DNA of 57,355 bases from Methylotenera sp. (GCA_036675645.1 JAKFEP010000186.1:1-57355), one strand, 5' to 3'; shown: positions 17,226 to 52,677, counted from the stretch's first letter. Numbers and translations are program-made. Notes: generated by a model from the sequence alone, not told the origin.

Positions 17226-17241
17226 CGTACGGTAACGCACA
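17226..17241 (-). promoter_or_regulatory. Palindromic Crp-family box upstream of the glucan synthase
   Basis: Minus strand TGTGCG-TTAC-CGTACG, 22 nt, then TATATT. Confidence 0.75.
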
Positions 17242-17266
17242 TAGCCTTATTGCACTTAAGTTTTAC

Positions 17267-18010
17267 CTAAGCGTTTAGCTGCATTTTTTGGAGACGGTCT
17301 TGTTCTTTTTTTGCAATCGCATAACACTCACAACTGCGACCCTCTAATGCATGACGATCCAGCACCGTAATCAGGCCGCGCTTATAACTGATCACACCCG
17401 CTTCTTGTAGTTTTAATGCAGCATCCGTTACGCTCTCGCGCCTCACTCCTAACATGCCGGCAAGCATCTCGTGTGTCAGTGCAATTTGATTGGAGGATAG
17501 TCGATCTAAACTTAGCAATAACCGACGGCATAGTTGCTGGTCGATTGAATGATGACGATTACAAACCGCTGTCTGTGTCATTTGCGTAATCATCGCCTGG
17601 GAATAACGCAATAAAATATTCAGCATATGTCCATCACGATTGATCGCGGTTTTGGCTGCTTGAGCATGCATTCTGTAACCTTTTCCGGCGCACTGTACCA
17701 AGGCCTGGTTAGGTGTGTCGCTACCCGATAATAACAATGATATGCCGACGACACCATCATTACCGATGACTGCCACTTCGGACGAGTCTCCACTTTCTGT
17801 CATATACAACAAAGAAACAATCGCTGTGGTCGGGAAATACATGTAAGCAGGTGTTTTTCCTGATTCATACAACACTTGGTTCAGAGAGAAATCGACAGGT
17901 TCCATATCAGGTTCCCATTGATGCCACTCATTTTCAGACATCGCAGCCAACAAATGGTTAAGTTGGGGTAATGACGCCTGATCTTGGATTTTTTGCGCGA
18001 CAGCATTCAT
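17267..18010 (-). CDS. Crp/Fnr family transcriptional regulator (paralog 1)
   Basis: cNMP-binding-like fold, AVCNRHH..QQLCRRLL, HTH LGVRRESVT, C-terminal SCECY; SD AAGGAG. Confidence 0.9.
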   Translation of the reverse strand: MNAVAQKIQDQASLPQLNHLLAAMSENEWHQWEPDMEPVDFSLNQVLYESGKTPAYMYFPTTAIVSLLYMTESGDSSEVAVIGNDGVVGISLLLSGSDTPNQALVQCAGKGYRMHAQAAKTAINRDGHMLNILLRYSQAMITQMTQTAVCNRHHSIDQQLCRRLLLSLDRLSSNQIALTHEMLAGMLGVRRESVTDAALKLQEAGVISYKRGLITVLDRHALEGRSCECYAIAKKEQDRLQKMQLNA

Positions 18011-18172
18011 GTGGTTCTCCTTAACTAGGGGCTCATGATGCGTTCAACTCATCGAATTTTTTATCAGTTACGCGCTTAATATAATGTAAGCATTATCCTA
18101 CGAGCTGATATTTATGCTGACCTCGTACCGTTAAAACTAAAAACTGTCATTAATGCTTCACTTTGAACTATT

Positions 18173-18188
18173 TGTGCGCCAGCGCACT
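18173..18188 (+). promoter_or_regulatory. Palindromic Crp-family box upstream of the EEP-clsB-nnrD operon
   Basis: TGTGCG-CCAG-CGCACT, 20 nt, then TAAGAT (18209). Confidence 0.75.
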
Positions 18189-18308
18189 TTAGAATTAATT
18201 AAACAATGTAAGATGATTAATGAAAACAAGCTAAGCTATCAATGCTGCCGAACCGTAAAACCAACTGTCTATAATTCGTTATAGTTTCTATAAAAAGCTG
18301 AGTTCAAT

Positions 18309-19061
18309 TTGCATAACACATTACGTATCGCTACATTCAATATCCATAAAGGGGTGACACACTTCAGCGCGAGCTTGGCGTTGCACCATCAGCGTGATTT
18401 GTTGCGAAAACTACATGCTGACATTATATTTTTACAAGAAGTACAAGACGTACATACACTAAAAAGTAAGCGTTTTTTAGCCTGGCCGACTGCAGGCCAA
18501 GTGGAGTTTTTAGCCGATACGGTTTGGAAAGATTATGCTTATGGCAAAAATTCGGCCTACCCAGCTGGCCACCATGGCAATGCTTTGTTGTCAAAATTTC
18601 CAATTCTAAACAATAAAAACATAGACATTTCAGCCCATACCTCTGAGCAGCGAGGCATACTGCATACTGAAATTAACGTACCCGGTTGGACATTGCCCTT
18701 ACATACTGTCTGTGTGCATCTGGGTTTATTTGCACATTGGCGGCATCAACAATTATATAAAGTTGCTGAATACATTGAGACACATGTACCTGCTGATGCG
18801 CCGCTAATTATTGCTGGTGATTTTAACGATTGGAGTATGCGTGCAGGCCGTGTCTTCGCAACGCGCTTACATTTAAAAGAGGTTTTTGAACATCATGCAG
18901 GTATTTCAGCACGCAGCTTTCCGTCTTGGCTGCCTATATTGCGTCTGGACCGTATTTATGTGCGTGGTTTCAGCATTAAGCATGTAGAGGTGCATTCAGG
19001 CCCACAATTTATTAAACTGTCAGATCACGCTATTTTAACGGCTACTCTAAATAAAGTATGA
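18309..19061 (+). CDS. Endonuclease/exonuclease/phosphatase family protein (YbhP-like)
   Basis: ATFNIHKG, FLQEV, HGNALLS, AGDFNDW, LDRIY, LSDH; upstream of clsB as in ybhP-ybhO. Confidence 0.88.
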   Translation: MHNTLRIATFNIHKGVTHFSASLALHHQRDLLRKLHADIIFLQEVQDVHTLKSKRFLAWPTAGQVEFLADTVWKDYAYGKNSAYPAGHHGNALLSKFPILNNKNIDISAHTSEQRGILHTEINVPGWTLPLHTVCVHLGLFAHWRHQQLYKVAEYIETHVPADAPLIIAGDFNDWSMRAGRVFATRLHLKEVFEHHAGISARSFPSWLPILRLDRIYVRGFSIKHVEVHSGPQFIKLSDHAILTATLNKV

Positions 19062-20242
19062 CGACTTTTGTTGGCGGAAACCAGATTGAGTTACTGCGTT
19101 GCGGGGTTGAATACTTTCCAGCGCTAGTGCATGCCATTGACGCTGCCAATACGGAGATTTACCTAGAAACCTATATTTTTGAATTAGATAAAGCGGGTAT
19201 CCAGATTGGCAATGCGCTGAAACAGGCAGCACAGCGTGGCGTCATGGTAAACGTTTTGCTAGATGGTTTTGGCTGCAAAGATATGCCGTCGGAATATCTA
19301 AAAGAATTACGACAAGCTGGTGTACAAGTCATGCTGTATCGGCAAAAAATATCACCCTGGACATTTAAAAAAAATCGCTTGCGCCGCCTACACCGAAAAA
19401 TTGTAGTCATTGATGAGCATATCGGCTTTGTTGGTGGTATTAACATTATTGATGATTACAACGTGCCTGAGAACACGCCGCCACGCATTGACTACGCCGT
19501 CCGTGTTGAAGGTGAGTTGTTACCCAGCATCACCGCAAGCGTACGTAAACTTTGGCATCGTATGCAATGGACACACTTGCAGCCTACTCGCCCCAACGCA
19601 AACAAACACTTAACTCAGGCTAAACCAGCAGGGAAAAAAAGTGTCAAAAAAACTATCCAAAAAGGCATGCAGGCTGCATTCGTATTACGCGATAACGTCT
19701 TGCATAGACGCGACATTGAAAAGGCTTATTTAAGCGCTATCCTCGCAGCGAAGTCTGAAATCATTATCGCGAATGCCTATTTTGTGCCAGGCAGACGGTT
19801 TCGTAGAGCATTATTAAAAGCTGCCAGACGTGGCGTAAAAATTGAGTTGCTGTTGCAAGGTCGTATGGAATATTTTTTAATGTTTGCTACGCACGCTTTT
19901 TATGGCCTGTTTTTAAAAAACGGTATCGATATTTATGAATATCGCAAAAGCTTTATGCACTGTAAGGTCGCTGTCATTGACGGCTATTGGGCTACGGTTG
20001 GATCATCCAATATCGATCCTTTTAGCATGCTGCTAGCACGTGAAGCCAATATCGTTGTACAAGATGCAGCATTTTCTAACCAGTTACGCAGTGAAATCTG
20101 CGCTTCGATTCGTGAAGGTGCCTATCAGGTCAATGCCAAAGAATGGTTGCAAGGCAACATTCTCAAACGCACCATATCATGGTTTACCTATGGCATTGTC
20201 AGAGTTTTTTTGGGCTTCATTGGTTATTCGAAAGAGCAGTAG
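19058..20242 (+). CDS. clsB: Cardiolipin synthase ClsB
   Basis: Two HKD motifs (HRKIVVID, HCKVAVID), no N-terminal TM segment, translationally coupled to the ybhP-like gene. Confidence 0.85.
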   Translation: MTTFVGGNQIELLRCGVEYFPALVHAIDAANTEIYLETYIFELDKAGIQIGNALKQAAQRGVMVNVLLDGFGCKDMPSEYLKELRQAGVQVMLYRQKISPWTFKKNRLRRLHRKIVVIDEHIGFVGGINIIDDYNVPENTPPRIDYAVRVEGELLPSITASVRKLWHRMQWTHLQPTRPNANKHLTQAKPAGKKSVKKTIQKGMQAAFVLRDNVLHRRDIEKAYLSAILAAKSEIIIANAYFVPGRRFRRALLKAARRGVKIELLLQGRMEYFLMFATHAFYGLFLKNGIDIYEYRKSFMHCKVAVIDGYWATVGSSNIDPFSMLLAREANIVVQDAAFSNQLRSEICASIREGAYQVNAKEWLQGNILKRTISWFTYGIVRVFLGFIGYSKEQ

Positions 20243-20255
20243 TTTTAGCAAAAAG

Positions 20256-21146
20256 ATGAAGAAATCAACCATTAATACCACGCCAAATAAGACAGTTAAA
20301 AGCAATGCTTTGCTGAAGCACATGTTTTTTCCTGCGCTGCCAGCACGCAGCCCAAGTTCGCATAAAGGGTCTTTTGGCAGTGTGGCAATTGTAGGCGGCG
20401 ATACTGGCATGACTGGTGCAGTATTGTTAGCCTCTCGTGCCGCCCTATTCTGCGGGGCGGGGCGGGTTCATGCGTTTTTCTTAGCTGAAAATGCGCCTAG
20501 CGTTGATACTAACCATCCTGAGATCATGCTGCATCCAGCCTCCGCGCTGACTAACATGAAGCAAATGAGCTGTATTGTCATCGGCCCAGGCTTAGGTCAA
20601 TCAAAAGTAGCCCTTGAACTGCTGGAGTTCTGCATCAAACAACATGTTAAGTTGTTGCTTGATGCAGATGCACTCAATTTAATCAGTCAACAAGCACATT
20701 TAAGTAACCTACTTAACAGTCGCCCGGCCGAAACCATTATGACACCCCACCCTGCCGAGGCAGCGCGTCTTCTTGCCACCACGGTAGCTGAAATTCAAAA
20801 CAATCGCAGTGGAAGTGCGCAAAAATTAGCTACTAATTTTCGGGCGGTTTGTGTATTAAAAGGTGCAGGAAGTATTTGTGCACACTTCGATGGCAGTTGG
20901 TTTATCAATACTACAGGCAACCCAGGATTGGCCAGTGGCGGTACAGGTGATGTTTTAAGCGGAATCATTGGCAATTTGATTGCACAAGGTTTAACTACAA
21001 TGCAGGCAGCTAAATTGGGCGTCTATGTGCACGGCGCTGCTGCCGATAAACTGGTGGCTGATGGCGTTGGCCCGGTAGGTTTGACGGCTTCAGAGATCAT
21101 ACTAGAGGTGCGCAACCAGATTAATCAGCTGAATAAACTGGCGTAG
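20256..21146 (+). CDS. nnrD: Stand-alone ADP-dependent NAD(P)HX dehydratase (YjeF C-terminal domain)
   Basis: HKGSFG, IGPGLG, LDADAL, TPHPAEAARL, VLKGAG, GGTGDVLSG; start moved to ATG 20256 to avoid the clsB overlap. Confidence 0.85.
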   Translation: MKKSTINTTPNKTVKSNALLKHMFFPALPARSPSSHKGSFGSVAIVGGDTGMTGAVLLASRAALFCGAGRVHAFFLAENAPSVDTNHPEIMLHPASALTNMKQMSCIVIGPGLGQSKVALELLEFCIKQHVKLLLDADALNLISQQAHLSNLLNSRPAETIMTPHPAEAARLLATTVAEIQNNRSGSAQKLATNFRAVCVLKGAGSICAHFDGSWFINTTGNPGLASGGTGDVLSGIIGNLIAQGLTTMQAAKLGVYVHGAAADKLVADGVGPVGLTASEIILEVRNQINQLNKLA

Positions 21147-21191: not shown

Positions 21192-22544
21192 TTACTTGCT
21201 TGCAGTTACTCGCCAAATCGTATTGCCGACATCGTCAGCAACTAGCAATGCACCGCTTTTATCCAAGACCACACCTACTGGCCGGCCATAGGCCTCACCT
21301 TCTTTGCTGACAAATCCTGTTAGCACATCGATTGGTTTTCCGGTTGGCTTGCCATTAACAAAAGGCACAAAAATAACCTTATAGCCACTGCGCGGCTTGC
21401 GGTTCCATGACCCATGTTGGCCTACAAACATGCCATTGGCAAACTCAGCTGGCAAAGTAGTGCCAGCAGCAGAAGCAAGGCCAAGCGAAGCCGTGTGTGG
21501 ACCCAAAGCATAATCAGGCACAATCGCTTTTGCCACCATTTCAGGCTGCGGCGGCTTCACCCGCTCATCAACGTGCTGCCCATAATAACTATAAGGCCAG
21601 CCATAAAATCCACCATCCTGCACAGAAGTTAAATAATCTGGCACCAAATCGCTACCAATTTCATCGCGCTCATTCACTACCGTAAATAGAGTGCTGTTTT
21701 CCCAAACCATGCCATTTGGATTGCGCAGACCAGAGGCAAAAATACGATGCTTGCCCGTTTCAATATCCACTTCCCAAATCGCAGCCCGCCCAACTTCAAC
21801 ATCCATACCATGTTCTGCTACGTTACTGTTGGATCCAACTGTTACATATAGTTTTGTGCCCGCTTTATTTGCAATGAGATTTTTAGTCCAGTGGTGATTC
21901 ATTGGCTCGCCAGGCAAATCCACTATTTTTTCGCCAGGTTCAGAAATTTGCTTGGCATCTTCTACATAGTTGTAGCGCATCACAGCATCGGCGTTAGCCA
22001 CATAAAAATGATTGCCAACCAATGCCATACCAAATGGCGAATACAAACCCTCGATAAAAGGTAAACGGATGTCAGCCACTCCATCCCCATTCGTATCACG
22101 TAATAATGTGATCCGGTTAGCACTAGGCACAGCAGCACCAGCTTGTTTCATCACCTTGCCCATCATCCAGCCCCTAAAGCCACCGCCACTTTGCTTAGGT
22201 GGCGCATTGGTTTCCGCAACCAAAACATCTCCGTTGGGTAAAACGGTTAGCCAACGCGGGTGATCCAACCCCGTTGCAAATGCGGACACTGTGGTACCCC
22301 CCGCTGCAATTGGTGTTAAGTCGGCAGGCCAACCGATTGCAGGTGCAATATGGACTGTTGGGATGATCGTTTTATTCGGTGCTGGCAATGTAGGGTTAGA
22401 ACCAATGCCAGCCGCTACGGGCAAGCTGGCAACATCCCCACATGCGCTTAATATTAACAAGGTTGCAGCAAGGCCTATCCCATACAAAAAGCTGTATGGA
22501 TTAAATGATCCATCAACCTGGCTATTCAATTTTTTTTTGCTCAT
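21192..22544 (-). CDS. Sorbosone/PQQ-dependent sugar dehydrogenase family lipoprotein
   Basis: Lipobox LSAC; [40 protein letters not shown]. Confidence 0.85.
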
Positions 22545-22554
22545 TTTTTAAAAA

Positions 22555-22713
22555 CTATAGCTTGCCCATTAAAACCAAAATGATCAGCACCACCACGACC
22601 AGCCCTAGGCCACCACTTGGCCCATAGCCCCAACTTTTACTGTGACCCCAAGTTGGCAATGCACCTATTAGCATTAAAATTAAAACAATTAATAATATTG
22701 TTCCAATACTCAT
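22555..22713 (-). CDS. DUF3309-like small membrane protein (52 aa), copy B; not in the ORF track
   Basis: MSIGTILLIVLILMLIGALPTWGHSKSWGYGPSGGLGLVVVVLIILVLMGKL; SD GGGAGAG. Confidence 0.88.
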   Translation of the reverse strand: MSIGTILLIVLILMLIGALPTWGHSKSWGYGPSGGLGLVVVVLIILVLMGKL

Positions 22714-22748
22714 GACGCTCTCCCAAATGAAATGATTTATGCATTAAT

Positions 22749-23006
22749 TTATGGTGTTGTTGGCGTAGTTTCTGGCGGTGGAATAATAATGGTAGTATCC
22801 CCAGACTCACCAGGTTCGCCCTGAACACCCTCATCACCAGGCTTTCCAGGTTCGCCTTTTTCCCCAGCAGGGCCAGGTACGGGCACTGGCACTGGTACAA
22901 CGACTGTTTCATCTCGTTCTTCTGGTACATTGACCACCGTTGGTTTATCGCATGCACCGAGAGCTAATACTGCAATTACCGCAAAAGTTAATGTTAAATT
23001 TTTCAT
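22749..23006 (-). CDS. Small lipoprotein with a short collagen-like (Gly-X-Y)9 segment
   Basis: Lipobox LGAC-DKP; PVPVPVP followed by GPA GEK GEP GKP GDE GVQ GEP GES GDT; SD AAGGA. Confidence 0.8.
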   Translation of the reverse strand: MKNLTLTFAVIAVLALGACDKPTVVNVPEERDETVVVPVPVPVPGPAGEKGEPGKPGDEGVQGEPGESGDTTIIIPPPETTPTTP

Positions 23007-23029
23007 ATTAAGTCCTTTATATTCTGATA

Positions 23030-23087
23030 TAAAAATCTGTATGGATTAAACAATCTGGTAATCCTTACTATTCAATTTTTTGCACAT
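23030..23087 (-). pseudogene. Relic copy of the first ~60 nt of the sorbosone dehydrogenase gene
   Basis: ATGTGCAAAAAATTGAATAGTAAGG...TTTAATCCATACAGATTTTT resembles ATGAGCAAAAAAAAATTGAATAGCCAGG...TTTAATCCATACAGCTTTTT at 22544; same 543-bp offset as the DUF3309 pair. Confidence 0.7.
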
Positions 23088-23097
23088 TTTTTAAAAA

Positions 23098-23256
23098 CTA
23101 TAGTTTACCCATCAGCACCAAGATGATCAGCACAACCACGACCAGCCCGAGACCGCCACTTGGCCCATAGCCCCAACTTTTACTGTGACCCCAAGTCGGT
23201 AATGCACCTATCAGCATTAAAACTAAAACAATCAATATTATTGTTCCTACACTCAT
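23098..23256 (-). CDS. DUF3309-like small membrane protein (52 aa), copy A; not in the ORF track
   Basis: MSVGTIILIVLVLMLIGALPTWGHSKSWGYGPSGGLGLVVVVLIILVLMGKL; SD GGGGAG. Confidence 0.88.
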   Translation of the reverse strand: MSVGTIILIVLVLMLIGALPTWGHSKSWGYGPSGGLGLVVVVLIILVLMGKL

Positions 23257-23285
23257 GATTTTCTCCCCGATAAAGTTAAATAGAT

Positions 23286-23582
23286 TTAAGGTTTTTCTGG
23301 CACAATTTCAGGCGGCATATCAACAACCGGTGGCGGGATAACAATACTGCCGTCACCATCCGGATTGCTAGGTTCAGTCTGGATATCTTGATCTAAAGAC
23401 TTTTCCGTTTCGCTTTTAGTCCTAGAGTCAATGCCTTCATCACCCGACTGTCCTCCACGTATTGACGACTCCGGCACAGGTACAGTCACAGGCTCATCTG
23501 GCAATTCGGCCGGCATTGGTTTATCGCATGCAACTAGACCTGACAATACGACAACTGCAAAAGCTACCTTTCGATAATTCAT
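23286..23582 (-). CDS. Small acidic Pro-rich lipoprotein, paralog of 22749-23006
   Basis: Start MNYRKV at 23582 after SD AAGGA; lipobox LVAC-DKP; shares VPVP, GDEG and IxIPPP with the paralog. Confidence 0.75.
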   Translation of the reverse strand: MNYRKVAFAVVVLSGLVACDKPMPAELPDEPVTVPVPESSIRGGQSGDEGIDSRTKSETEKSLDQDIQTEPSNPDGDGSIVIPPPVVDMPPEIVPEKP

Positions 23583-23643
23583 GTTAAGTCCTTTTACATT
23601 GCTCAGAACGTAATCCATCTTAAGTGATTAACTCACTTTACTT

Positions 23644-23659
23644 TGTTCGTTATCGTACA
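23644..23659 (-). promoter_or_regulatory. Palindromic Crp-family box upstream of the lipoprotein/DUF3309/dehydrogenase unit
   Basis: Minus strand TGTACG-ATAA-CGAACA, 21 nt, then TAAGAT. Confidence 0.8.
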
Positions 23660-23720: not shown

Positions 23721-23736
23721 AGTTGCATAACGCACA
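23721..23736 (+). promoter_or_regulatory. Degenerate Crp-family box upstream of Crp paralog 2
   Basis: AGTTGC-ATAA-CGCACA, 21 nt, then TACAAT (23758). Confidence 0.65.
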
Positions 23737-23797: not shown

Positions 23798-24523
23798 ATG
23801 AGCGCCTTGCCTGACCCACGACAAAACCATTTACTTGATGCGTTGTTGGCAACTGATTATAACCGCTTATTTCCGAACCTTGAGTTTGTTAAATTGCCTC
23901 TGGGCCAAGTACTGTATGAGTCTGGCCAACAATTAAAATATGTCTATTTCCCCACCAACAGTATTATTTCGCTGCTATATGTGATGGAAAATGGTGCATC
24001 GGCAGAGATTGCGATTGTAGGCAATGAGGGCATATTAGGAATCTCCCTTTTTATGGGGGGAGAAACAACACCAAGCCGCGCCGTTGTACAAAGTGCTGGG
24101 GAGGGCTTCCGTTTAAAAGGGGACATATTAAAATCTGAATTTAACCGTGCCGGCCCAGTACAAAGATTATTATTGCGTTACACCCAAGCATTGATTACGC
24201 AAATGGCACAAACAGCCGTGTGCAACCGGCATCATTCGGTAGAGCAACAATTATGTCGCTGGCTATTGCTCAGTTTAGATCGCCTTGCGAGTAACGAAAT
24301 CACGATGACGCAAGAACTCATTGCCAATATGCTGGGGGTGCGCCGTGAAGGCGTTACCGAAGCGGCACGCAAATTACAAGCGGCTGGTTTAATTGAATAC
24401 AGCCGTGGTCACATTAAAGTCACCGATCGACCCATGCTAGAAAAAAGATCCTGCGAATGCTACGACGTTGTTAAAGTCGAGTTCGAGCGCTTACTCCCAT
24501 CACTCCACGGCATTGCCAAGTAA
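23798..24523 (+). CDS. Crp/Fnr family transcriptional regulator (paralog 2)
   Basis: QNHLLDAL, VYFPTNSIISLLY, VGNEG, AVCNRHHSVEQQLCRWLL, HTH LGVRREGVT, SCECY. Confidence 0.92.
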   Translation: MSALPDPRQNHLLDALLATDYNRLFPNLEFVKLPLGQVLYESGQQLKYVYFPTNSIISLLYVMENGASAEIAIVGNEGILGISLFMGGETTPSRAVVQSAGEGFRLKGDILKSEFNRAGPVQRLLLRYTQALITQMAQTAVCNRHHSVEQQLCRWLLLSLDRLASNEITMTQELIANMLGVRREGVTEAARKLQAAGLIEYSRGHIKVTDRPMLEKRSCECYDVVKVEFERLLPSLHGIAK

Positions 24524-24584: not shown

Positions 24585-24600
24585 TGTGCGTTGGTGCACA
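24585..24600 (+). promoter_or_regulatory. Palindromic Crp-family box upstream of the PAS-GGDEF-EAL gene
   Basis: TGTGCG-TTGG-TGCACA, 20 nt, then CATAAT (24621). Confidence 0.75.
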
Positions 24601-24671: not shown

Positions 24672-26516
24672 ATGGCTAACCAAGCTAAAACGAATATGAG
24701 CAAATTCGCTGTGACTAAAGCGGATGTGCGTGTGCAACCCACCGAAAAAACAAAAAAAACCGATACAACATCAGCAGGCCAATCTGTCATTATTGATGCA
24801 GCCAGGTATAGAGAGAAAACGCGGGCAGAAATTGCGCTTAACTCCATTAGTGATGCCGTTTTCTGTACTGACACTAAAGGCAATATCGATTACTTAAATA
24901 TTGCTGCGGAAAAAATTACCGGCTGGTCGCGCGAAGAAGCCAACGGCAAACCCAGCAACCAGATATTTAAAATTATTAACGGATTAACACGCGAGGCAAG
25001 CTGCGATCCTGTGAGCATGGTGTTGAAAACCAATAAACCCAGTGGCATTGCACCAGATACGATATTAATAAAGCGCGATGGTAGCGAAGTAGCTATTGAA
25101 GATTCCGCTTCACCCATTTACAGCAGCAATGGTCAGCTGACCGGGGTGGTGGTGGTATTTCACGACGTAACTGGGACCAAAGCTATGTCCACCAAGATGG
25201 CACACTTGGCACAACATGATTTTTTAACTAACCTGCCTAACCGCGTATTGCTCAATGACCGTATATCGCAAGCCGTCGCTTCTGCTAAACGGCATCATAC
25301 GCAATTAAGTGTGCTTTTTTTGGATCTGGATAATTTTAAGCATATCAACGACTCCTTAGGGCATGCGGTAGGAGATAAATTATTACAATCAATCAGTCAA
25401 CGTCTGCTCAACTGTGTACGTAGCTCGGACACAGTTAGCCGCCAAGGCGGGGATGAATTTATTGTCTTGCTGGCAGATAATAAAAATGGGGCAAACGCTG
25501 CATTAACGGCTGAAAAAATCCTCGAAGAATTTAAGCCGGCACATAAGCTAGGAGGGGTCGTTCCAATACATATTAGTACCAGCATTGGTATTAGTGTATT
25601 CCCTAACGACGGTATGGATGCAGAAACACTGATTAAAAACGCTGATATCGCCATGTATTTTGCCAAACAAAAAGGGCGTGATAATTACCAGTTCTTTAAA
25701 AGCGCGATGAACACACAGTCGACTCAGCGTGTGAATATTGAGGCGGGATTGCGTTCCGCGCTAGCAAAACAGCAATTTACGTTGCGTTATCAACCCAAAG
25801 TGAATCTGGTAACAAACCAAATAACTGAGGTAGAGGTCTTTCTACGATGGCAACATGTCGAATGGGGTGAAGTGCTGCCTTTGGATTTTCTTTCGATTGC
25901 AGCAGATTGTGGCTTGATTGTTCCGATTGGTCGCTGGGTGCTACGAGAAGCTTGCTATCAAGCTAAACAGTGGATGAATAGCGGAATACCGCCCATTACA
26001 ATTGCAGTGAATGTTTCTGAAAAAGAGTTTCTGCATAAAGACTTTGTAGAAAGTGTACGTGCGATATTAATTGAAACGCAACTGCCGGCACACTACCTGG
26101 AATTAGAAATCACTGAAAGTGCGTTGATGCGTGATGCAAACAACAGCATGACAATATTGCACGACCTGAAGAAAATGGGGCTAAAACTCTCCGTGGACGA
26201 TTTTGGTACCGGTTACTCGAGCCTCAGTTACCTGCAGCTATTTCCTATTGATGCATTAAAAATTGATCAATCATTTGTACATCAAATAATGTCAGCTGTG
26301 GATGATGACATTATTCTTTCTGCCATCATTAGCATTGGGCATAAACTGAAGCTAAAAGTGATTGCGAAGGGAGTAGAGAATAAAATGCAGCTGGACTTTT
26401 TGAAGAGCCAACAATGCCACGGAGGTCAAGGTAACTTTTTTAGCCCTGCCTTAACCGGAGAGCAATGTGCAAGCATGCTTGCAGATACTGAATTATTTTT
26501 AGAAGTAGCTAATTAA
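24672..26516 (+). CDS. PAS-GGDEF-EAL protein (EAL domain looks degenerate)
   Basis: PAS domain, HDFLTNLPNR, intact GGDEF; EAL motif reads EVF and EGVE reads KGVE. Confidence 0.9.
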   Translation: MANQAKTNMSKFAVTKADVRVQPTEKTKKTDTTSAGQSVIIDAARYREKTRAEIALNSISDAVFCTDTKGNIDYLNIAAEKITGWSREEANGKPSNQIFKIINGLTREASCDPVSMVLKTNKPSGIAPDTILIKRDGSEVAIEDSASPIYSSNGQLTGVVVVFHDVTGTKAMSTKMAHLAQHDFLTNLPNRVLLNDRISQAVASAKRHHTQLSVLFLDLDNFKHINDSLGHAVGDKLLQSISQRLLNCVRSSDTVSRQGGDEFIVLLADNKNGANAALTAEKILEEFKPAHKLGGVVPIHISTSIGISVFPNDGMDAETLIKNADIAMYFAKQKGRDNYQFFKSAMNTQSTQRVNIEAGLRSALAKQQFTLRYQPKVNLVTNQITEVEVFLRWQHVEWGEVLPLDFLSIAADCGLIVPIGRWVLREACYQAKQWMNSGIPPITIAVNVSEKEFLHKDFVESVRAILIETQLPAHYLELEITESALMRDANNSMTILHDLKKMGLKLSVDDFGTGYSSLSYLQLFPIDALKIDQSFVHQIMSAVDDDIILSAIISIGHKLKLKVIAKGVENKMQLDFLKSQQCHGGQGNFFSPALTGEQCASMLADTELFLEVAN

Positions 26517-26546: not shown

Positions 26547-26562
26547 TGTCTCCTAGCGCACA
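26547..26562 (+). promoter_or_regulatory. Crp-family box driving the putative sRNA
   Basis: TGTCTC-CTAG-CGCACA, 21 nt, then CATATT (26584). Confidence 0.65.
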
Positions 26563-26596
26563 GATTAACTCAATTTAAAAGAGCATATTGCCCTTC

Positions 26597-26680: not shown

Positions 26681-26700
26681 ATAGGCTTAGACTAAAGTTC

Positions 26701-35661: not shown

Positions 35662-35670
35662 GTTAGATTC

Positions 35671-43988: not shown

Positions 43989-44004
43989 AGTACGCTAACG
44001 CACT
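43989..44004 (-). promoter_or_regulatory. Palindromic Crp-family box upstream of the methyltransferase operon
   Basis: Plus strand AGTACG-CTAA-CGCACT; on minus strand 21 nt, TAAGCT, 6 nt, ATG. Confidence 0.78.
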
Positions 44005-45305: not shown

Positions 45306-48038
45306 TTAAGCATTAAGCTTATTCTGATTTGATTGTGACTTTTGAACAATTTGCTCGAATTGTTTATTTGATACTGGTTTAGAAAACAGGTAACCCTGTG
45401 CATAATCACAGCCAGCTTCTTCCAGTAGGTTTAGTTGTGCATTGGTTTCCACACCTTCTGCAATCACCTTCATCTCAAGCTTGTGGGCCATCAGGATAAT
45501 CGCCTCACACAAGCCCATATCATTTGATCCAGCGGCAATATTACGTACAAATGACTGATCAATCTTAATGTAATCGATATCGTATTTTTTCAAGTACGAC
45601 AGGGAAGAATAGCCTGTGCCAAAATCATCAATCGCTATCTGGATACCGGCATTTCTAAACGCTTGCAGTCTTTCGGTAATGCCGCTGGCTGCATCCAACA
45701 ATAAACCCTCTGTAATTTCAACAGTGATGCACTGTCCGGGTAATTTCATTTTTTCCAATTGCTCAAGCCAGCCAAAATCTTGACTCTTAAATTGAATCGG
45801 CGACTTATTAATGCTTATTTGAAAATCAGGATGCAGTGTCTTACGCCATTTCTTAACTTGTTGCACTGCTTGCTGAAACACCCAATCACCAATTTCAACA
45901 ATAATGCCGGTATCTTCCGCAATCGCAATAAACTGTGCCGGATTAATCATCCCCAGTGTTGGGTGATGCCAGCGGATCAAGGCTTCAGCTTTGCGAATTT
46001 GTCCGCTCTCTATCTCAACAATAGGCTGATAAACCAACTTAAACTCGCCTTTTTCACGAGCATGCCTTAAGTCATTCGCTAAACGCATTCTGGCTTTAGC
46101 AGAAGTTTGCATGGAAGCAGTAAAATAGCTATACCGATTGCGGCCTTCGGCTTTGGCGGCATACATCGCTTGATCGGCGTTTTTCAATAAATCTTCAAAC
46201 TCGGTGGCATCAATCGGGTATAGCGTAATGCCGATACTGGCTGAAATATAAACTGGTTCAGTTCCCAAATTAAACGGCTTTACCAGGTTGGCCAAAATAT
46301 TTTTAGCCACTTTATCCAAAGCAGTAGAGTCATCCATCTGTGTTAGCAAAATCACAAACTCATCGCCACCCAAGCGCGCCACGGTATCGATATCACGTAC
46401 ACTTGCTTGTAAACGCTCTGATACTTCTTTCAGTAGTGCGTCACCTTGATTATGTCCAAGCGTGTCATTCACCTCTTTAAAATGATCCATATCGAGAAAC
46501 ATCACCGCAAGCAATGACCCTGTACGTTCGGATTTTTTAATTTCTTGTTCCAGACGATCACGAAACATACGGCGGTTAGGCAGACCAGTAAGACTATCAA
46601 AATTGGCCTGTTGCCAAATCGTTTCTTCTGCTTCCCTTTGTTTGCTGATATCTCGCAAAATACCTAAGACGCTTCGTTTACCGCGAAAATCGACTGCAGA
46701 TGCGCGTAAATCCATCCACAGCGACTCTTTGCCGCCCTTTAGCAAAAACTTCACTTGATAATTCTTAGTTGGCTCACCTTCGCCAGTGATGCGCATCCTG
46801 AATCGCTGATTCCATACTTGCAGATATTCCGGTGCAATCACCTGTGCAAATGGCATATCGATAAATTCTTCGTAGGTGTAACCTAACATTTCAGGCAAGA
46901 TAGGGTTGAAGAAAACAAAGCGGAAGTCTTGTGCAACAAAAACCCCGTCTACCATCGCCTCTAGTAAGGCACGCTGGTTTGAGTCACTCTCACGCAGCTC
47001 AGCTTCCATGATTTTGATTTCATGAATATCAATGTGCGTACCCACCATGCGCGCTGCCTTACCATCCTCTGCATAACTCACCACCTTGCCACGAGAAAGT
47101 ACCCATTTATAGCTACCATCCTTGCATTGCATACGGTGTTCAAATGCATATTTATCTGCTTTTCCGCTGATATACTCCTTTAGTGCAACCAGTACATTTG
47201 GCAAATCTTCTGGGTGTACCATTTTCTCCCAACCTGCAATACTGGCTTGAAGTTCGTCATCTTCATAGCCCAGCATGGCTTTCCAGTTGTTAGAATATGT
47301 CACCTCCCTGGTAAGAATGTTCCAGTCCCAAACACCGTCACGCGCACCATCAAGCGCAAACTTCCAGCGCTCCTCATTGACACGAATCATATCGACATAA
47401 GCTGCGTCTCTGAGCACTAATCGGCGTGACAACAACACACCCAAAGCCATGAGTATGATGGTGAAAACCAACATAAATATTGCAATTAAAGTTTGTGCCT
47501 TGCGCGAAGCTGCGCTGATGGAATTGGAAAAAGCGTCCTCTATTGGCCTCAATTCAAGATTGATCTTGTTTATACGCTGTATTAAAGGCTGGATCGTTTC
47601 AGGTTTAGTTTCGCCGGACTTAATATGTTGGCGCAATTGCTCTGCCAGTTGCACGATTTGGTCTATTAAGTCATCACCCTGCTGCCAATAACCAATAGAA
47701 GGTTTTAGTAGGCTGGTATGCTGGAATATTTGAAACAGTGTAATCATCCCCGGTACATCTTCCGGGTTGTTTTTACCTAAAATAAGACCTTGGGTAACCA
47801 AGTCAATATCAGGGCTTTCACTTTGCAGTTGAATACGTGCCTGCTTATCACCTAACGGCACTTCGATTGCTTTTAAATACTGTTGATAATCAGAATCAGC
47901 ATGGCTTTTGGCATATTGATTGAGATAGTAGACAGACTCTTTTTGTGATTTTGACCAAAAGCTTTCGCCGCTCACATAAGCCCGGACAGATGACAGCGTT
48001 TTCATGCTGACCACGCCCAAGACGAACAATAGCGCCAC
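45306..48038 (-). CDS. Membrane-anchored PAS-PAS-GGDEF-EAL protein (start probably further upstream)
   Basis: TM plus periplasmic region, two PAS domains, GGDEF, EAL, DDFGTGYSSL, EGVE. Confidence 0.9.
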   Translation of the reverse strand: MALLFVLGVVSMKTLSSVRAYVSGESFWSKSQKESVYYLNQYAKSHADSDYQQYLKAIEVPLGDKQARIQLQSESPDIDLVTQGLILGKNNPEDVPGMITLFQIFQHTSLLKPSIGYWQQGDDLIDQIVQLAEQLRQHIKSGETKPETIQPLIQRINKINLELRPIEDAFSNSISAASRKAQTLIAIFMLVFTIILMALGVLLSRRLVLRDAAYVDMIRVNEERWKFALDGARDGVWDWNILTREVTYSNNWKAMLGYEDDELQASIAGWEKMVHPEDLPNVLVALKEYISGKADKYAFEHRMQCKDGSYKWVLSRGKVVSYAEDGKAARMVGTHIDIHEIKIMEAELRESDSNQRALLEAMVDGVFVAQDFRFVFFNPILPEMLGYTYEEFIDMPFAQVIAPEYLQVWNQRFRMRITGEGEPTKNYQVKFLLKGGKESLWMDLRASAVDFRGKRSVLGILRDISKQREAEETIWQQANFDSLTGLPNRRMFRDRLEQEIKKSERTGSLLAVMFLDMDHFKEVNDTLGHNQGDALLKEVSERLQASVRDIDTVARLGGDEFVILLTQMDDSTALDKVAKNILANLVKPFNLGTEPVYISASIGITLYPIDATEFEDLLKNADQAMYAAKAEGRNRYSYFTASMQTSAKARMRLANDLRHAREKGEFKLVYQPIVEIESGQIRKAEALIRWHHPTLGMINPAQFIAIAEDTGIIVEIGDWVFQQAVQQVKKWRKTLHPDFQISINKSPIQFKSQDFGWLEQLEKMKLPGQCITVEITEGLLLDAASGITERLQAFRNAGIQIAIDDFGTGYSSLSYLKKYDIDYIKIDQSFVRNIAAGSNDMGLCEAIILMAHKLEMKVIAEGVETNAQLNLLEEAGCDYAQGYLFSKPVSNKQFEQIVQKSQSNQNKLNA

Positions 48039-48262: not shown

Positions 48263-48293
48263 AAAAAAGCCTAGTCATCTCTGACTAGGCTTT
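48263..48293 (-). terminator. Intrinsic terminator (likely the original tRNA-Lys terminator)
   Basis: AAAGCCTAGTCA-TCTC-TGACTAGGCTTT with a T-run on the minus strand, just past the displaced tRNA 3' end. Confidence 0.8.
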
Positions 48294-48298
48294 AAATT

Positions 48299-48344
48299 TG
48301 GTAGGGTGTGCGGGGATCGAACCCACGACAAACGGATTAAAAGT
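48299..48344 (-). repeat. att direct repeat: duplicated 3' 46 nt of tRNA-Lys
   Basis: 45/46 identical to 53506-53551, running from the anticodon loop to CCA. Confidence 0.93.
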
Positions 48345-48585
48345 TGTTATAACATACTGTTTTTATTATAAAATTACTCGCCATCACTCGCTAATTCTCG
48401 TAAACATTGGTCATAGTTGTCACGTTCTAAGTTTTTTTAATGTCCATTTTCGACCCATAACAGACACTCAACGTGCTTACTCAGGGGTTAGTCGTCTTTT
48501 GTATGCGAACGGATGGGTCTAGTCGGGCGCGGGAATAAATAGCGCAATTATTTACAACTACAAATGTAGTCGAGGTAGACTGTTC

Positions 48586-50022
48586 TTATTGGCTATTAGC
48601 CAATGCTAATTTCCAGCAATTCTTTCCCATTGCCTTAGCCTGATACATAGCGGTATCTGCAAGACTTATTATCGTATCAATATCTTTGCTATTGTTTGGG
48701 TAGACTGACACGCCAATACTCGCAGATATACTGGCTTTATGGACACCCAGAAGGAAAGGGTTGCTAATGGTGTTTAAAATCTTTTCAGCTAAAACATGTA
48801 CGCCATTTAGATTTTCCAAACCACTAAAAATGATAGTGAACTCATCGCCACCTAGTCTTGCAAAGGTGTCTGACTCCCTTACACATAGACTCACTCTCTG
48901 AGTGACTTGGATTAATAGGTTATCACCTGCTTTATGTCCAAAATTATCATTTACCCCTTTAAAGCCATCTAAGTCTATAAACATGAGGGCAAACATTTGT
49001 TTTGCACGGGATGATCGCTTTACAGCCTCTTTTAATTTTTCAAAGAACATCCTTCTGTTTGGCAATCCTGTCAAAGAGTCAAAATTTGCGTGTCGCCAAA
49101 TAATTTCTTCTGTCTGCTTACGGTTTGAAATATCAGTATGAGTACCAACCATACGTTTCGGTGAGCCTGCAGCATTCCACTCAACAACCATACCCCTTGT
49201 CAAAATCCATTTATAACTTTGATCTTTACAGAGCACTCTGTGTTCAAGCTTGTATTCATCTATGCTCTTGTTTAGGTAGTCATTAAGTCGCTTTTGGACT
49301 GTTAGAAGGTCATCTTTATGAATTATTGAAAGCCAAGCTTCAGGCGAATTTAAAAGGTCATCATCTTCATAACCCAACATTTCTTTCCATTTAGTAGAAA
49401 AATAACTGATATTGTTTTCAATATCCCAATCCCACACACCGTCACCTGAACCCTCCAAAGCAAATTTCCATCGTTGCTCACTTTCATCAAGTTGTTTATT
49501 AATCAGTTCGCTTTCAATGACCAAGTCTCGATACTTATTACGTTCAGTCCTTAGTTCAAGTAGTTTCATAGCTTGATTAGCCAACAACATTAAGATATTT
49601 ATCTGGCTATCAGTCAGCTCCCGAGGAATTTTATCCATTATGCAAAAAGTACCTACTGCGACATCACCTGATGTACGCAAAGGTACACCAGCATAAAAAG
49701 CCAAATGAGGGGCATTAATTACAAGCGGGTTATTAGCAAACCGAGGATCCATAGAGGTGTCTGAAATAATAAGCGGATCATGTTGCTGGATGGCAAGAGT
49801 ACAGAAAGAAACATCTCTGGGGGTTTCTTTGACCGTTAAACCTACTGCCGCCATGAACCATTGACGGTGTGAATCTAGAATAGTAACTGTGGAAATAGGA
49901 ACTTCAAAAATTTTAGACGCAAGATTAACTAAATCATCAAAATCAGATTCTGGAGGAGTATCCAATATTTCTAAACTTTTTACTGCCATTAAGCGCTTAT
50001 GCTCTTGTAAAGCATCAATCAT
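48586..50022 (-). CDS. GAF-PAS-GGDEF diguanylate cyclase
   Basis: ILDTPPE..FDDL GAF, DGVWDW PAS, FARLGGDEF. Confidence 0.9.
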   Translation of the reverse strand: MIDALQEHKRLMAVKSLEILDTPPESDFDDLVNLASKIFEVPISTVTILDSHRQWFMAAVGLTVKETPRDVSFCTLAIQQHDPLIISDTSMDPRFANNPLVINAPHLAFYAGVPLRTSGDVAVGTFCIMDKIPRELTDSQINILMLLANQAMKLLELRTERNKYRDLVIESELINKQLDESEQRWKFALEGSGDGVWDWDIENNISYFSTKWKEMLGYEDDDLLNSPEAWLSIIHKDDLLTVQKRLNDYLNKSIDEYKLEHRVLCKDQSYKWILTRGMVVEWNAAGSPKRMVGTHTDISNRKQTEEIIWRHANFDSLTGLPNRRMFFEKLKEAVKRSSRAKQMFALMFIDLDGFKGVNDNFGHKAGDNLLIQVTQRVSLCVRESDTFARLGGDEFTIIFSGLENLNGVHVLAEKILNTISNPFLLGVHKASISASIGVSVYPNNSKDIDTIISLADTAMYQAKAMGKNCWKLALANSQ

Positions 50023-50112
50023 TAGCTACTCGCTTTCAAGAAATAATTTTTAGAAGTACTTACCAGAGTAATATTCTATATTGTGAATTAGAGATATAAT
50101 TTCCCAGTGAAT

Positions 50113-52236
50113 TTAATCTAAGCTGCTGAGTTGCTTTAAATTTTCAAAATCCTCTAAAGGAACTGGTTTTCCAAAGAGATAACCTTGACATAACTTACAA
50201 CCATGTTGCTCGAGGAATTCTCTTTGTGATTCCGTTTCAACTCCTTCAGCAATTACATCTATTCCCAGATTTTTTGCCATACCAATGATGGTTTGTACCA
50301 TAACCGCATCTTTTTCATTAGTTGAAATATTACGTACAAAAGACTGATCAATTTTAAGTTCATCTAAAGGCAATCTTGTTAAATAAGAAAGTGATGAATA
50401 ACCAGTACCGAAATCGTCTAAAGAAAAATACATGCCAAATTGTTTAAGTGCATTCATTTTTAAAATTGTGTCATCAATATTAATTAGCACAAGTGTTTCA
50501 GTGAGTTCAAGCTTGAGTTTTATAGGGTCTATCTCATTTTCTTTTACCGCATTAATAACTTGATCTACAAAATCAGGTTGGTGAAATTGACGTGCGCTCA
50601 CATTGATTGAGATTTTCAATTCTCTAGTTAGCGGGTTTTTCTGCCACACCTTAATTTGTTCGCAGGCAGTATTTAGTACCCACAGACCTATTGGAAGTAT
50701 TAATCCTGTTTCTTCGGCTAAGGGGATAAATTGCATTGGAGGAACCAGGCCTAATTTGGGATGCGGCCACCGAATTAAAACTTCAGCACCAAGAATTTTC
50801 TTTGAATGATCTACCTGCATTTGGAAATATAGTTTAAATTGCCCTTCTTTTACAGCAACTCTTAATTCATTTTCCATAACGCTTCGAGCTTCAAGCGTAG
50901 CTTGCATTTGTGGGTCATAAAAGCGCAATGTGTTTCGACCTGCATTTTTTGCTTGATACATTGCTGTATCTGCACGTTTAAGCAATTCATTAACACTTAT
51001 TTCTTGATTACAAAACAAGGTAATGCCGATACTTGCTGATCCAAAATATTCATGACCATTTAAGATATAAGATTCTGAAATAGTACTGAGTATTTTTTTT
51101 GCTAAATTCTCGACATAAGCCGCAGCTTTTTCAATATCTGCGTTCAAATCTTGGACTATAACAATAAACTCATCGCCTCCCAATCTTCCAATTGTGTCGG
51201 ACTTTCTTACACACAAACTCAACCTTTTGGCAATTTCGATTAGCAACATGTCACCAACATTATGACCTTGTACATCATTGAGCTTTTTGAAATTGTCTAG
51301 ATCGATAAAGAGTACAGAATCGTAATTTGCATGACGAATGCTAGCCGTATGAATGTTATTCAACCGATCAAGTAGAAGTTGTCGGTTTGGTAAATTAGTT
51401 AAGGAATCGTAGAAGGCTAGATGTTGAATTCGCTGTTCAATTAACTTACGCTCGGTAACGTCCTGACATGTACCTAAAACCCGTTCTGGATGTTCGTCCT
51501 CGTCTATACATATCCGCCAGTGCTCTTCTACATACTTTATTCGGCCATCTGACAAAAGCAGACGATGTTCTAGAGTTTGGTCAAAACTTTGGGATAAAGA
51601 TGAAATAAAAGCATTATTAACTTCAGCCCGGTCATCCGGGTGAACAATATCCAGAAAAGCCTGGTGTGAAGGGTTAAATTTTAAAGGATCAATTTCAAAT
51701 ATTCTGTAAGTTTCTTCCGACCATTTAACGGACATACTGGGAATTTCAGTTTCCCAGCTACCCATTTTAGCGACTTTTTGTGCTTGTGCTAATCGGAATC
51801 TTTCACTCTCAAGTAGCTCATGCGCCTTATTATTTTCACTCACATTAACAATTAAGGCGACATAACCAATTATTACTTCTTTCTTGCGAATTGGAGATAC
51901 TGAAAGTTTTACTAAAAAAGATTGACCGCTTTTTTGATTAAAATTTAAGTCATACCAAATGTTGTGAGATTTTGCAGTGCCTAAAATATTCAGCAACTTA
52001 TTCGCGTACTTTTTGGGAAAAATATCAAATAATTTTTTCCCTTTAACTGCGCGTTGGGATGTTTGATCAAACATTTCACACAACGCTGGGTTAGCATATA
52101 GAAATTCAGCACTGGTGGATAATACAGCGGCACATTCTGACATAGCATCAAGAATGTTTTTATATGGTAGTTTGGCAGGATTGACTAAAGATATAACCCC
52201 ACTCTTAGTTTCGTAATTCGACTCTCTCATTTGCAC
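50113..52236 (-). CDS. PAS-PAS-GGDEF-EAL protein
   Basis: GRLGGDEF, EVL, DDFGTGYSSL, EGVE, QGYLF. Confidence 0.9.
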   Translation of the reverse strand: MQMRESNYETKSGVISLVNPAKLPYKNILDAMSECAAVLSTSAEFLYANPALCEMFDQTSQRAVKGKKLFDIFPKKYANKLLNILGTAKSHNIWYDLNFNQKSGQSFLVKLSVSPIRKKEVIIGYVALIVNVSENNKAHELLESERFRLAQAQKVAKMGSWETEIPSMSVKWSEETYRIFEIDPLKFNPSHQAFLDIVHPDDRAEVNNAFISSLSQSFDQTLEHRLLLSDGRIKYVEEHWRICIDEDEHPERVLGTCQDVTERKLIEQRIQHLAFYDSLTNLPNRQLLLDRLNNIHTASIRHANYDSVLFIDLDNFKKLNDVQGHNVGDMLLIEIAKRLSLCVRKSDTIGRLGGDEFIVIVQDLNADIEKAAAYVENLAKKILSTISESYILNGHEYFGSASIGITLFCNQEISVNELLKRADTAMYQAKNAGRNTLRFYDPQMQATLEARSVMENELRVAVKEGQFKLYFQMQVDHSKKILGAEVLIRWPHPKLGLVPPMQFIPLAEETGLILPIGLWVLNTACEQIKVWQKNPLTRELKISINVSARQFHQPDFVDQVINAVKENEIDPIKLKLELTETLVLINIDDTILKMNALKQFGMYFSLDDFGTGYSSLSYLTRLPLDELKIDQSFVRNISTNEKDAVMVQTIIGMAKNLGIDVIAEGVETESQREFLEQHGCKLCQGYLFGKPVPLEDFENLKQLSSLD

Positions 52237-52397
52237 CTTCAGCGAATAGAAACTTAAAACAACAAATTAGCAACTAGTTTTTTAAATATACTAAGTAATA
52301 TACAGTAATAAACTAATTGATGATTTTCGAATGTGCCATTTTCTAGAGCCTCCCTGCGGCTTAGGTTACTCCCTCGCCGATCCGCAACCAAAATGAC

Positions 52398-52628
52398 TTA
52401 AGAATTTAATGAGCGGAATTTTCTTACTAGAAGGGGTTCTTTATTATATTTGCCCATTTGATTAAGATACTCATTTCCTTTATGGGTGAGAATCCATCCC
52501 ACTTTAAATTCAAACCTAATATAGTCGATAGAAAATAACGTACGGATGCTTGGGATATCAAGCTCAGTCATGCTTCCTTCGGCGATTCCGATAAGGGTAT
52601 TTTGAAATTCAACGGGAAGGGTTTCCAT
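52398..52628 (-). CDS. Small hypothetical protein (76 aa), probably leaderless
   Basis: ATG at 52628 is 6 nt after the -10 CAGAAT of a box promoter; C-terminal WILTHKGNEYL resembles a winged-helix wing. Confidence 0.55.
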   Translation of the reverse strand: METLPVEFQNTLIGIAEGSMTELDIPSIRTLFSIDYIRFEFKVGWILTHKGNEYLNQMGKYNKEPLLVRKFRSLNS

Positions 52629-52661
52629 CAAATGATTCTGATCCTGTGAGAAATACTTATC

Positions 52662-52677
52662 TGTACGTTAGCGAACA
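52662..52677 (-). promoter_or_regulatory. Palindromic Crp-family box inside the tRNA island
   Basis: Plus strand TGTACG-TTAG-CGAACA; on minus strand 21 nt then CAGAAT. Confidence 0.78.

Follow-up and report, generated by a model that had tools for sequence, protein, structure and literature searches.

A palindromic promoter box in a Methylotenera stress-gene island, a candidate operator of the Crp/Fnr clade that includes BerA

Overview

A 57,355-nt stretch of DNA from Methylotenera sp. (GCA_036675645.1, JAKFEP010000186.1:1-57355; hereafter the window), contig C155 of a host genome of 2.28 Mb and 44% GC, contains a stress-gene island with 13 intergenic copies of a real palindromic box. Four Crp paralogs encoded in the same island, crpA to crpD, are the sole members of their Crp clade across the host genome. 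We propose that the box would be the operator of this large Crp/Fnr clade, characterized by an RR(E/V)(G/S)VT recognition helix, and would be read here mainly by CrpB. Most probably CrpB binds it as a dimer and thereby activates promoters of the sigma70 type; autoactivation and a feedback arm through cyclic di-GMP (c-di-GMP) would come with this. The mechanism would be textbook class II Crp activation, with an operator for which our literature search found no published motif. The clade is not wholly uncharacterized, since BerA of Burkholderia cenocepacia is a member.

Occurrence of the box in the window and the host genome

A preliminary description made from this DNA alone had listed 14 copies of the pattern TGTDCG-N4-CGHACA, and had read them as a candidate undescribed Crp-paralog regulon. 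The described sequences are present at all 14 coordinates. With a score matrix trained on 15 sites outside the window, which were picked with the claimed pattern, 13 of the 14 are the 13 top-scoring sites of the window and account for every match scoring at least 10; the remaining one, at 39709, scores 5.3 and ranks 18th. The strict pattern was too narrow: it is exact at 4 sites, one mismatch occurs at 4 and two at 2, and three or more are found at 4 (23721, 26547, 27299 and 39709). Allowing at most one mismatch, the window holds 9 matches against 0.81 expected, a count that 0 of 100 shuffles reached; one of the nine (49672) is intragenic and absent from the original list.

The proposed excess in intergenic over coding DNA holds for the host genome, where 8 of 9 exact matches are intergenic, intergenic DNA amounting to 222 kb of 2.28 Mb (~10%) by crude open reading frame (ORF) calls. 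One-mismatch matches number 14 intergenic and 22 coding, and at a matrix score of at least 16 there are 29 intergenic sites versus 0 coding, training sites counted in. Sites are thus found genome-wide, and the regulon would not be confined to the island.

Distance of the box to the -10 hexamer

A 16-bp site that ends 21 nt before a -10 hexamer is centred near -41.5, the class II position of CRP/FNR activators. Ten hexamers at exactly 21 nt, as first described, were confirmed (seven TAnnnT, three CAnnnT), as was a -10-like hexamer at 20-22 nt for thirteen of the 14 sites; the distance is 22 nt at 17226 and 20 nt at 18173 and 24585, and 27299 has no such hexamer.

The spacing was also compared in non-redundant sites scoring at least 14, of which 30 came from the host genome, 107 from loci of the genus and 37 from other families; this set dropped intra-ORF sites (3, 2 and 10, respectively), and its loci were chosen around Crp genes and pattern matches in genomes related by descent, for which reason no weight is placed on a p-value. 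TAnnnT at offset 21 was found on the gene side of 3/14, 12/39 and 5/14 sites in these three groups, and on the far side of 1/14, 2/39 and 1/14; pooled, this is 20/67 versus 4/67, with a background of 2.9%. Among divergent sites the counts were 7/12, 28/55 and 8/15. The fixed distance between site and -10 that is expected of class II promoters is therefore seen in three genome groups, and the -41.5 centre would follow from this spacing.

The conserved site exceeds 16 bp and has a directional logo of approximately TW-TGTDCG-NYRN-CGHACA-KA; conservation is restricted to about 20 bp plus the -10, and the flanks are not conserved. GA stands directly 3' of the box at 34/67 sites on the gene side and 15/67 on the far side, and this yields the hexamer CAGACA, which makes a poor -35 at 17 nt from the -10. 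The last two bases of the box and the next four would then double as that poor -35, and such an overlap is a simpler explanation of the flank asymmetry than heterodimers.

Co-occurrence of the box with the Crp clade

The clade is large, with 4,256 representatives at 50% identity (E<=1e-30), and is present in 70 of 201 sampled genomes of the order (about a third). In a survey of 200 genomes of the order with a strict 20-mer, itself partly derived from 8 of the 200, and a clade call at E<=1e-25, at least three strand matches occurred in 43/69 clade-positive versus 2/131 clade-negative genomes. Total matches were 396 versus 31, and a reversed control gave 16 versus 25. One genome, G073, has about 20 strict boxes per strand, the highest of the 201, and two clade genes.

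Within the genus (24 genomes, many of them incomplete), 11 genomes with a CrpB orthologue (at least 77% identity) carry 4-10 exact boxes, 6 with the CrpA type only carry 1-3, and 5 clade-free genomes carry 0-3; two intermediate genomes have 8 and 4, and controls gave 0-3. Because exact-box counts follow the CrpB orthologue in the genus, CrpB is the likely main reader. In genome G016 (contig C65) a CrpB-type gene was matched as two pieces (68% and 70%), and the genome keeps 8 exact boxes.

Boxes with a -10 at 20-22 nt also precede crpB orthologues in other families, and boxes precede genes on the clade-bearing element pKLC102 (7 versus 2). Three distant homologues whose helices differ, from Nostoc, Microvirga and Granulicella, had 0 matches scoring at least 10 in about 10 kb each. 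The spacing, the co-occurrence with the clade and the boxes before crpB orthologues together support the earlier idea of a Crp-paralog regulon at class II geometry, in which -41.5 itself would derive from the distance to the -10.

A pairing of individual paralogs with particular half-sites (Glu helix with TGTG, Val helix with TGTA) was considered and is unsupported, because a Burkholderia island with 73%-identical CrpB relatives holds mostly GTACG sites. This island of about 50 kb (L040-L042 and L031) contains a GH94 synthase, PRC-barrel-like genes, close CrpB relatives and about twenty GGTACG-type boxes.

The CrpB protein and its paralogs

CrpB (23798-24523, plus strand) is the most conserved of the four paralogs. 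Its recognition helix, GVRREGVTEAA, is that of BerA, and is accompanied by C142, H146, C219 and C221. The others are clade paralogs with the helices RRESVTDAA (crpA, 17267-18010, minus strand), RRVGVTKAA (crpC, 27511-28263, plus strand) and RRESITLIA (crpD, 40758-41555, minus strand). HTH_Crp_2 exceeded its cut-off in all four, and cNMP_binding was matched in crpA and crpB only. Names given by the ESM Atlas for a homologue were generic (Crp/Fnr) only.

The CrpB model has a CRP fold (predicted local distance difference test, pLDDT, 95.4) and resembles CRP of Mycobacterium tuberculosis, GlxR and FNR, with template modelling (TM) scores up to 0.76; none of the solved structures listed shares more than 22% identity with it. 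A homodimer model reached 0.89 versus 0.00 for the best control; all contacts (100%) agreed between runs, and pLDDT was at least 88. In calibration, 20 of 30 solved one-chain pairs and 1 of 23 single chains attained the mark for such models, and the score may mirror likeness to known folds, because CRP dimers have already been solved.

Across 138 aligned clade sequences, R182 and R183 of the recognition helix are kept in 135 and 136, C142, H146 and C221 in 137 each, and C219 in all 138. We predict that the Cys/His set binds a metal, in a structural or sensory role. No Cys precedes residue 142 in CrpB. In Escherichia coli CRP the Glu and Arg of the phosphate-binding cassette, which contact cyclic AMP (cAMP), are E72 and R82; by by-eye alignment these positions are I82 and P92 in CrpB, and Glu/Arg are never among the commonest residues there. 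The would-be nucleotide pocket is hydrophobic at residues 82-87, which pack on the partner's helix in the dimer model.

BerA and the Burkholderia loci

BerA (Bcam1349) is a CRP/FNR-family activator of the bep exopolysaccharide cluster of B. cenocepacia (PMC3584217, PMC5552954, PMC9684580). It is reported to bind 500-bp fragments from the upstream regions of bcam1330 and bcam1331, with binding strengthened by c-di-GMP, and to activate them (PMC3584217); its own transcription is controlled by RpoN and BerB (PMC5552954). Comparison of the sequences shows that BerA belongs to the CrpB clade: the two proteins are 44.6% identical and have the same GVRREGVTEAA helix, the same Cys/His set and the CNRHH and CECY motifs. 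BerA probably uses this box, which in Burkholderia marks the ber-bep locus.

The ber-bep region of genome G260 (38 kb), in which five genes are colinear with their published coordinates, contains 5 matches scoring at least 10, all intergenic, and a reversed control gave 0; good intergenic boxes are nearly confined to the ber-bep locus in this genome. The divergent bepA/bepB interval holds one box, 437-452 nt upstream of bepA and 222-237 nt upstream of bepB, less than 500 nt from either start codon. Twenty-four related Burkholderia loci with another gene order hold 100 matches versus 1, with three positional box classes recurring in 23, 21 and 24 of the 24, and 48 other wza loci gave 7 versus 7. 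The Burkholderia loci W01 and L045-L070 give footprinting support only, because their bep gene order differs from that of the published strain.

The bep gene order differs among NZ_CP091013.1, other complex members and G260. NZ_CP091013.1 carries the label of a B. cenocepacia plasmid, but the replicon measures 3.2 Mb and its bepA shares 99% identity with that of B. puraquae. The published RpoN site of berA occurs once in it, 197 nt before a Crp gene (196 in PMC5552954), and the product of this gene is the BerA protein compared with CrpB above.

Evidence that weighs against the proposal

Several results count against the box being a class II operator of this clade. One set concerns published transcript ends. 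Starts had been predicted at a fixed offset from the box, and the three Burkholderia 5' ends that can be placed are all off -41.5. From the centre of the bepA/bepB box it is 165.5 nt to the bcam1331 end and 356.5 nt to the bcam1330 end, both mapped by rapid amplification of cDNA ends (RACE; PMC3584217); from the centre of the bcam1348 box it is 110.5 nt to the start of that gene in differential RNA sequencing (dRNA-seq; PMC4603805). The RACE ends come from strain H111, RACE can map processed ends, and the remaining bep promoters had no mapped start. The bepA/bepB box is also weak, with two mismatches and a score of only 10.8. Other Burkholderia clade members, 71-73% identical to CrpB, and Bcam1348 could read the boxes instead of BerA. 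The B. cenocepacia dRNA-seq data (PMC4603805) give no primary start for bcam1330, 1331, 1338, 1340, 1341, 1347 or 1349, and a half-site search of the upstream 60-mers found no full box at the predicted offset among the matches listed for six terms.

TAnnnT is absent at 21 nt in 47/67 gene-oriented sites, and YAnnnT in 38/67, so that other geometries or misassigned genes must be common. In the order survey, 26/69 clade-positive genomes have fewer than three strict matches and 8/54 close-clade genomes have zero; looser boxes stood beside crp genes in 3/3 checked close-clade genomes without a strict match. The surveyed genomes are related by descent, and the 20-mer comes partly from 8 of the 200. 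In two box-bearing genomes, G127 and G138, even a second query found no clade gene; one of the two is a 330-contig, 93% complete assembly. Lastly, a Methylomagnum plasmid member with a helix identical to that of CrpB has no box in 12.7 kb.

Alternative explanations

The part of the proposal that is most exposed to an alternative is the signal. That c-di-GMP is the switch, as reported for BerA, is a possibility to which we give somewhat less than an even chance, by analogy with that protein. The alternative, that the Cys3His set senses a metal or thiol redox state, or that the protein is ligand-free and governed by its amount like FixK, comes only just short of even. It agrees with the near-invariance of the four residues (137, 137, 138 and 137 of 138), the hydrophobic pocket residues 82-87 packed on the partner helix in the dimer model, the control of berA itself at transcription by RpoN and BerB (PMC5552954), and the finding that crpB orthologues of other families have no GGDEF gene within a distance of 1.5 kb. 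Conversely, binding of BerA to its promoters is reported to rise with c-di-GMP (PMC3584217), a PAS-GGDEF-EAL orthologue adjoins crpB in 10/11 genus loci, the eleventh locus ending at a contig edge, and the metal site of CrpB is a prediction.

It is very unlikely that the clade acts as a repressor whose dimer, sitting over the -35 region, keeps polymerase out until a signal releases it. The box does overlap the -35 position, and 27299, like many sites elsewhere, has no -10 at the activating distance; the one-base-sharp peak at 21 nt in three genome groups nevertheless fits an activator contact and not a steric block, the -35 hexamers are poor, and BerA is reported as an activator (PMC3584217).

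We consider it very unlikely that another island-travelling regulator reads the box and that the Crp genes are mere targets. Such a reader would account for G127 and G138, where boxes are present and the clade gene was not detected, and for the published 5' ends that lie off -41.5 near BerA. The TGT-N10-ACA spacing and the -41.5 geometry are, on the other hand, of the CRP-family dimer type; the four clade genes are the sole transcription-factor genes that Pfam found among the 38 larger window ORFs; and boxes accompany the clade on pKLC102 (7 versus 2) and in many families.

Chance matches or a small repeat element without a regulatory role are practically negligible as an explanation, for although 4/14 sites differ at three or more positions and 39709 is background-like, the 9 matches versus 0.81 expected, the 29 intergenic versus 0 coding sites scoring at least 16 and the gene-side peak at 21 nt refute it for 13/14 sites. 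Conservation limited to about 20 bp and the -10, with unconserved flanks, also speaks against it.

Comparison with known regulators

The E. coli CRP site is TGTGA-N6-TCACA and the FNR site TTGAT-N4-ATCAA, with a class II centre at -41.5. The present system resembles E. coli CRP and FNR at class II promoters in the CRP fold, the dimer model, the 16-bp core, the 21 nt to the -10, the outer TGT...ACA and the R-E pair of the helix; it differs in the inner CG...CG, in an extra Arg before R-E and no final Arg, and in having neither the cAMP Glu/Arg nor the N-terminal Fe-S cysteines. LexA was rejected, its operator having the spacing CTGT-N8-ACAG versus N10 here. The helix RREGVTE differs from the CRP motif given in PMC3590769, and the site logo has CG at positions 5-6. 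CrpB is also without the ExSR helix motif of FNR and without its N-terminal Fe-S cysteines, which make up three of the four in FNR. Cyanobacterial NtcA (GTA-N8-TAC at about -41.5; PMC3898017) shares the geometry, and the TGTACG...CGTACA subset of boxes contains GTA-N8-TAC; yet the paralogs score 21-24 bits for TIGR03697 versus a cut-off of 244.95, position 4 is A, G or T with CG...CG kept, and the targets are not nitrogen genes. The cAMP/cGMP-dependent Clr of Sinorhizobium meliloti is a fold-level match only, at 16-17% identity. A lead to EpsA of Methylobacillus yielded nothing of use.

BerA has the same clade and helix. It differs in that berA has an RpoN promoter, whereas crpB has its own box, and in that the good intergenic boxes are nearly confined to one locus in G260, the regulon here being genome-wide and of a stress type; no binding motif of BerA is given in the parts of the literature that we saw. 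No published motif matching this box was found in a search of the openly accessible literature, and the motif is absent from the parts examined of PMC3590769, PMC9684580, PMC8231446, PMC10333796, PMC13751637 and PMC4603805. The box may be undescribed; the clade, with BerA in it, is not wholly so.

Genes that follow the box and the apparent absence of RpoS

Elsewhere in the host genome boxes precede a cyclopropane synthase gene, a quinol-dependent nitric oxide (NO) reductase gene, a 2Fe-2S/molybdo-oxidoreductase run and a sucrose-phosphate synthase operon. Further boxed units are topoisomerase IB beside Ku, a hemerythrin pair, BrkB and a short-chain dehydrogenase/reductase (SDR) gene with CsbD nearby, as well as M48 and trypsin-like proteases, DUF72, DUF378, a KaiC-like run and many small proteins; the operon assignments of these genome-wide targets are inferred. 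The target list (cardiolipin synthases, osmolyte synthesis, DUF3309, SDR, BrkB and others) is what we take to be a general-stress gene set. The sigma-factor stress responses (RpoS, SigB, EcfG/PhyR) have overlapping target types, CsbD and Ku lying near boxed genes here; the difference is that control would here pass through an activator of sigma70 promoters. On contig C7 (L188:881-4116) a strong box separates the gene of the quinol-dependent NO reductase from a 110-aa ORF; the usual control of NO reductases is of the NnrR/NsrR type.

The host genome has 8 sigma70 region-2 matches, read by length and sequence as RpoD, RpoH, a FliA-like factor and five extracytoplasmic function factors. RpoS, as TIGR02394 over its cut-off, was found in 0/47 genus genomes, the matches being only RpoD-sized and RpoH-sized frames; a betaproteobacterial RpoS would be expected as a third TIGR02394 match even below the cut-off. 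Our literature search found no report on RpoS absence in Methylophilaceae.

In the proposed mechanism a CrpB dimer on the box would activate sigma70 promoters from about -41.5, and CrpB would switch on its own gene, crpC, crpD and the c-di-GMP enzyme, closing a feedback loop. The output would be a general-stress regulon with cardiolipin synthases, cyclic glucan and sucrose synthesis, DUF3309, SDR, hemerythrin, BrkB and cyclopropane synthase, and it may substitute for the missing RpoS regulon. A wider and more tentative idea, doubtful enough that we would sooner expect it to fail, is that the clade is a general-stress master activator that is not a sigma factor: an island-borne, metal-bearing (Cys3His) and c-di-GMP-gated Crp of RpoS-less Betaproteobacteria. 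By the same tentative reasoning, the island-borne clade might capture incoming genes through the box, and BerA might be a specialized offshoot with a predictable operator.

Boxes and genes of the window

The island spans from core genes (1-8.3 kb) to tRNA-Lys/adk (53.5 kb) and includes a GH94 glucan synthase, two cardiolipin synthases, four GGDEF enzymes, czc, AsmA, AI-2E and the four Crp paralogs. As first described, no box stands before the core genes or czc, no match scoring at least 10 lying upstream of either. A box before most accessory units holds for the list of 13 sites; it fails for crpA, the AI-2E gene and the GGDEF genes at 45306-48038 and 48586-50022, which have no box at class II distance.

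The leftmost box (17226-17241, minus strand, score 19.6) has TATATT at 22 nt toward the GH94 cyclic-glucan synthase gene (8298-17105, minus strand). The box at 18173-18188 (plus, 17.0) has TAAGAT at 20 nt toward an operon for an endonuclease/phosphatase, the cardiolipin synthase clsB and a carbohydrate-kinase-family protein (18309-21146). An exact box at 23644-23659 (minus, 22.1; TAAGAT at 21 nt) points to a small-protein cluster, a duplicated unit of a small lipoprotein-like ORF and DUF3309 at 22555-23582 on the minus strand (ORFs 23286-23582, 23098-23256, 22749-23006 and 22555-22713), which is its likely target; a glucose/sorbosone dehydrogenase gene (21192-22544) comes after the unit. The region 22533-23594 is a tandem duplication of the proline-rich lipoprotein-like ORF and DUF3309, with 199 nt at 87% identity, and one ORF in it has a short collagen-like stretch.

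The box toward crpB (23721-23736, plus) is weak, with a score of 10.4 and TACAAT at 21 nt. The PAS-GGDEF-EAL c-di-GMP enzyme gene 3' of crpB (24672-26516, plus) has its own box at 24585-24600 (plus, 18.7), with CAGACA over the box end and CATAAT at 20 nt. Next, the box at 26547-26562 (plus, 14.9) has CATATT at 21 nt, followed by about 85 nt to a terminator at 26655-26674. A box-driven small RNA at 26547-26681 was considered and is not supported: the downstream part was matched in 4/46 other genus genomes, in one only at the terminator, and the nearest relative is without the box. A CCACG...CGTGG hairpin-like element stands directly before the intrinsic terminator (26625-26681). It recurs in three relatives (L204, L205 and L206) at 3' gene ends, the genes being different ones, and is possibly an RNA element of 3' untranslated regions.

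Three boxes, 43 and 55 nt apart, lie between divergent genes at 27256-27369. The first is exact (27256-27271, minus, 19.7) and has TATTTT at 21 nt toward a gene for a 161-aa membrane protein (26701-27186); the last (27354-27369, plus, 18.1) has CAGACA at the box end and CACTCT at 21 nt toward crpC. The middle one (27299-27314, 17.9), to which no strand is assigned, lacks a -10 at 20-22 nt in both directions; it may work on one of the flanking promoters from an upstream position. The box at 28401-28416 (plus, 19.6; TACCAT at 21 nt) precedes the second cardiolipin synthase gene (28489-30003).

The genome's best box, at 39652-39667 (minus, 26.9), has TAGCTT at 21 nt toward an AsmA-family gene (37541-39580). 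Beside it lies the doubtful box at 39709-39724 (plus, 5.3), with TATCCT at 21 nt toward a gene for an iron-containing redox enzyme (39832-40761). The run of methyltransferase, ATP-grasp and crpD genes, which ends with crpD, has a box at 43989-44004 (minus, 18.9) with TAAGCT at 21 nt. Around crpD (39832-43955) the iron-containing redox enzyme, an ATP-grasp protein (PurD-like, below cut-off) and a HemK-like methyltransferase form a cluster that looks like a small biosynthetic unit.

The exact box at 52662-52677 (minus, 23.2), with CAGAAT at 21 nt toward a 76-aa ORF (52398-52628), lies in a low-GC element bounded by tRNA-Lys, and this suggests that incoming DNA joins the regulon. The element (48289-53581) is set between 56-nt repeats of the tRNA-Lys end (48289-48344 and 53496-53551) and contains two GGDEF genes, the 76-aa ORF and an integrase fragment of 196 aa. 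Nested insertions are suggested by a second repeat, of 104 nt (48334 and 52832). Elsewhere in the genome the same box with near-identical flanks occurs on two contigs (L189:1-14, at the start of C62, and L193:3986, C73:17486), with paralogous small ORFs nearby, as a recent duplication or an assembly break.

Significance

A 20-bp operator with a fixed spacing to the -10 would make the regulons of this clade predictable from sequence, and would offer candidate sites for footprinting of BerA, a studied biofilm regulator. The regulon would also bear on stress survival of RpoS-less methylotroph-like Betaproteobacteria.

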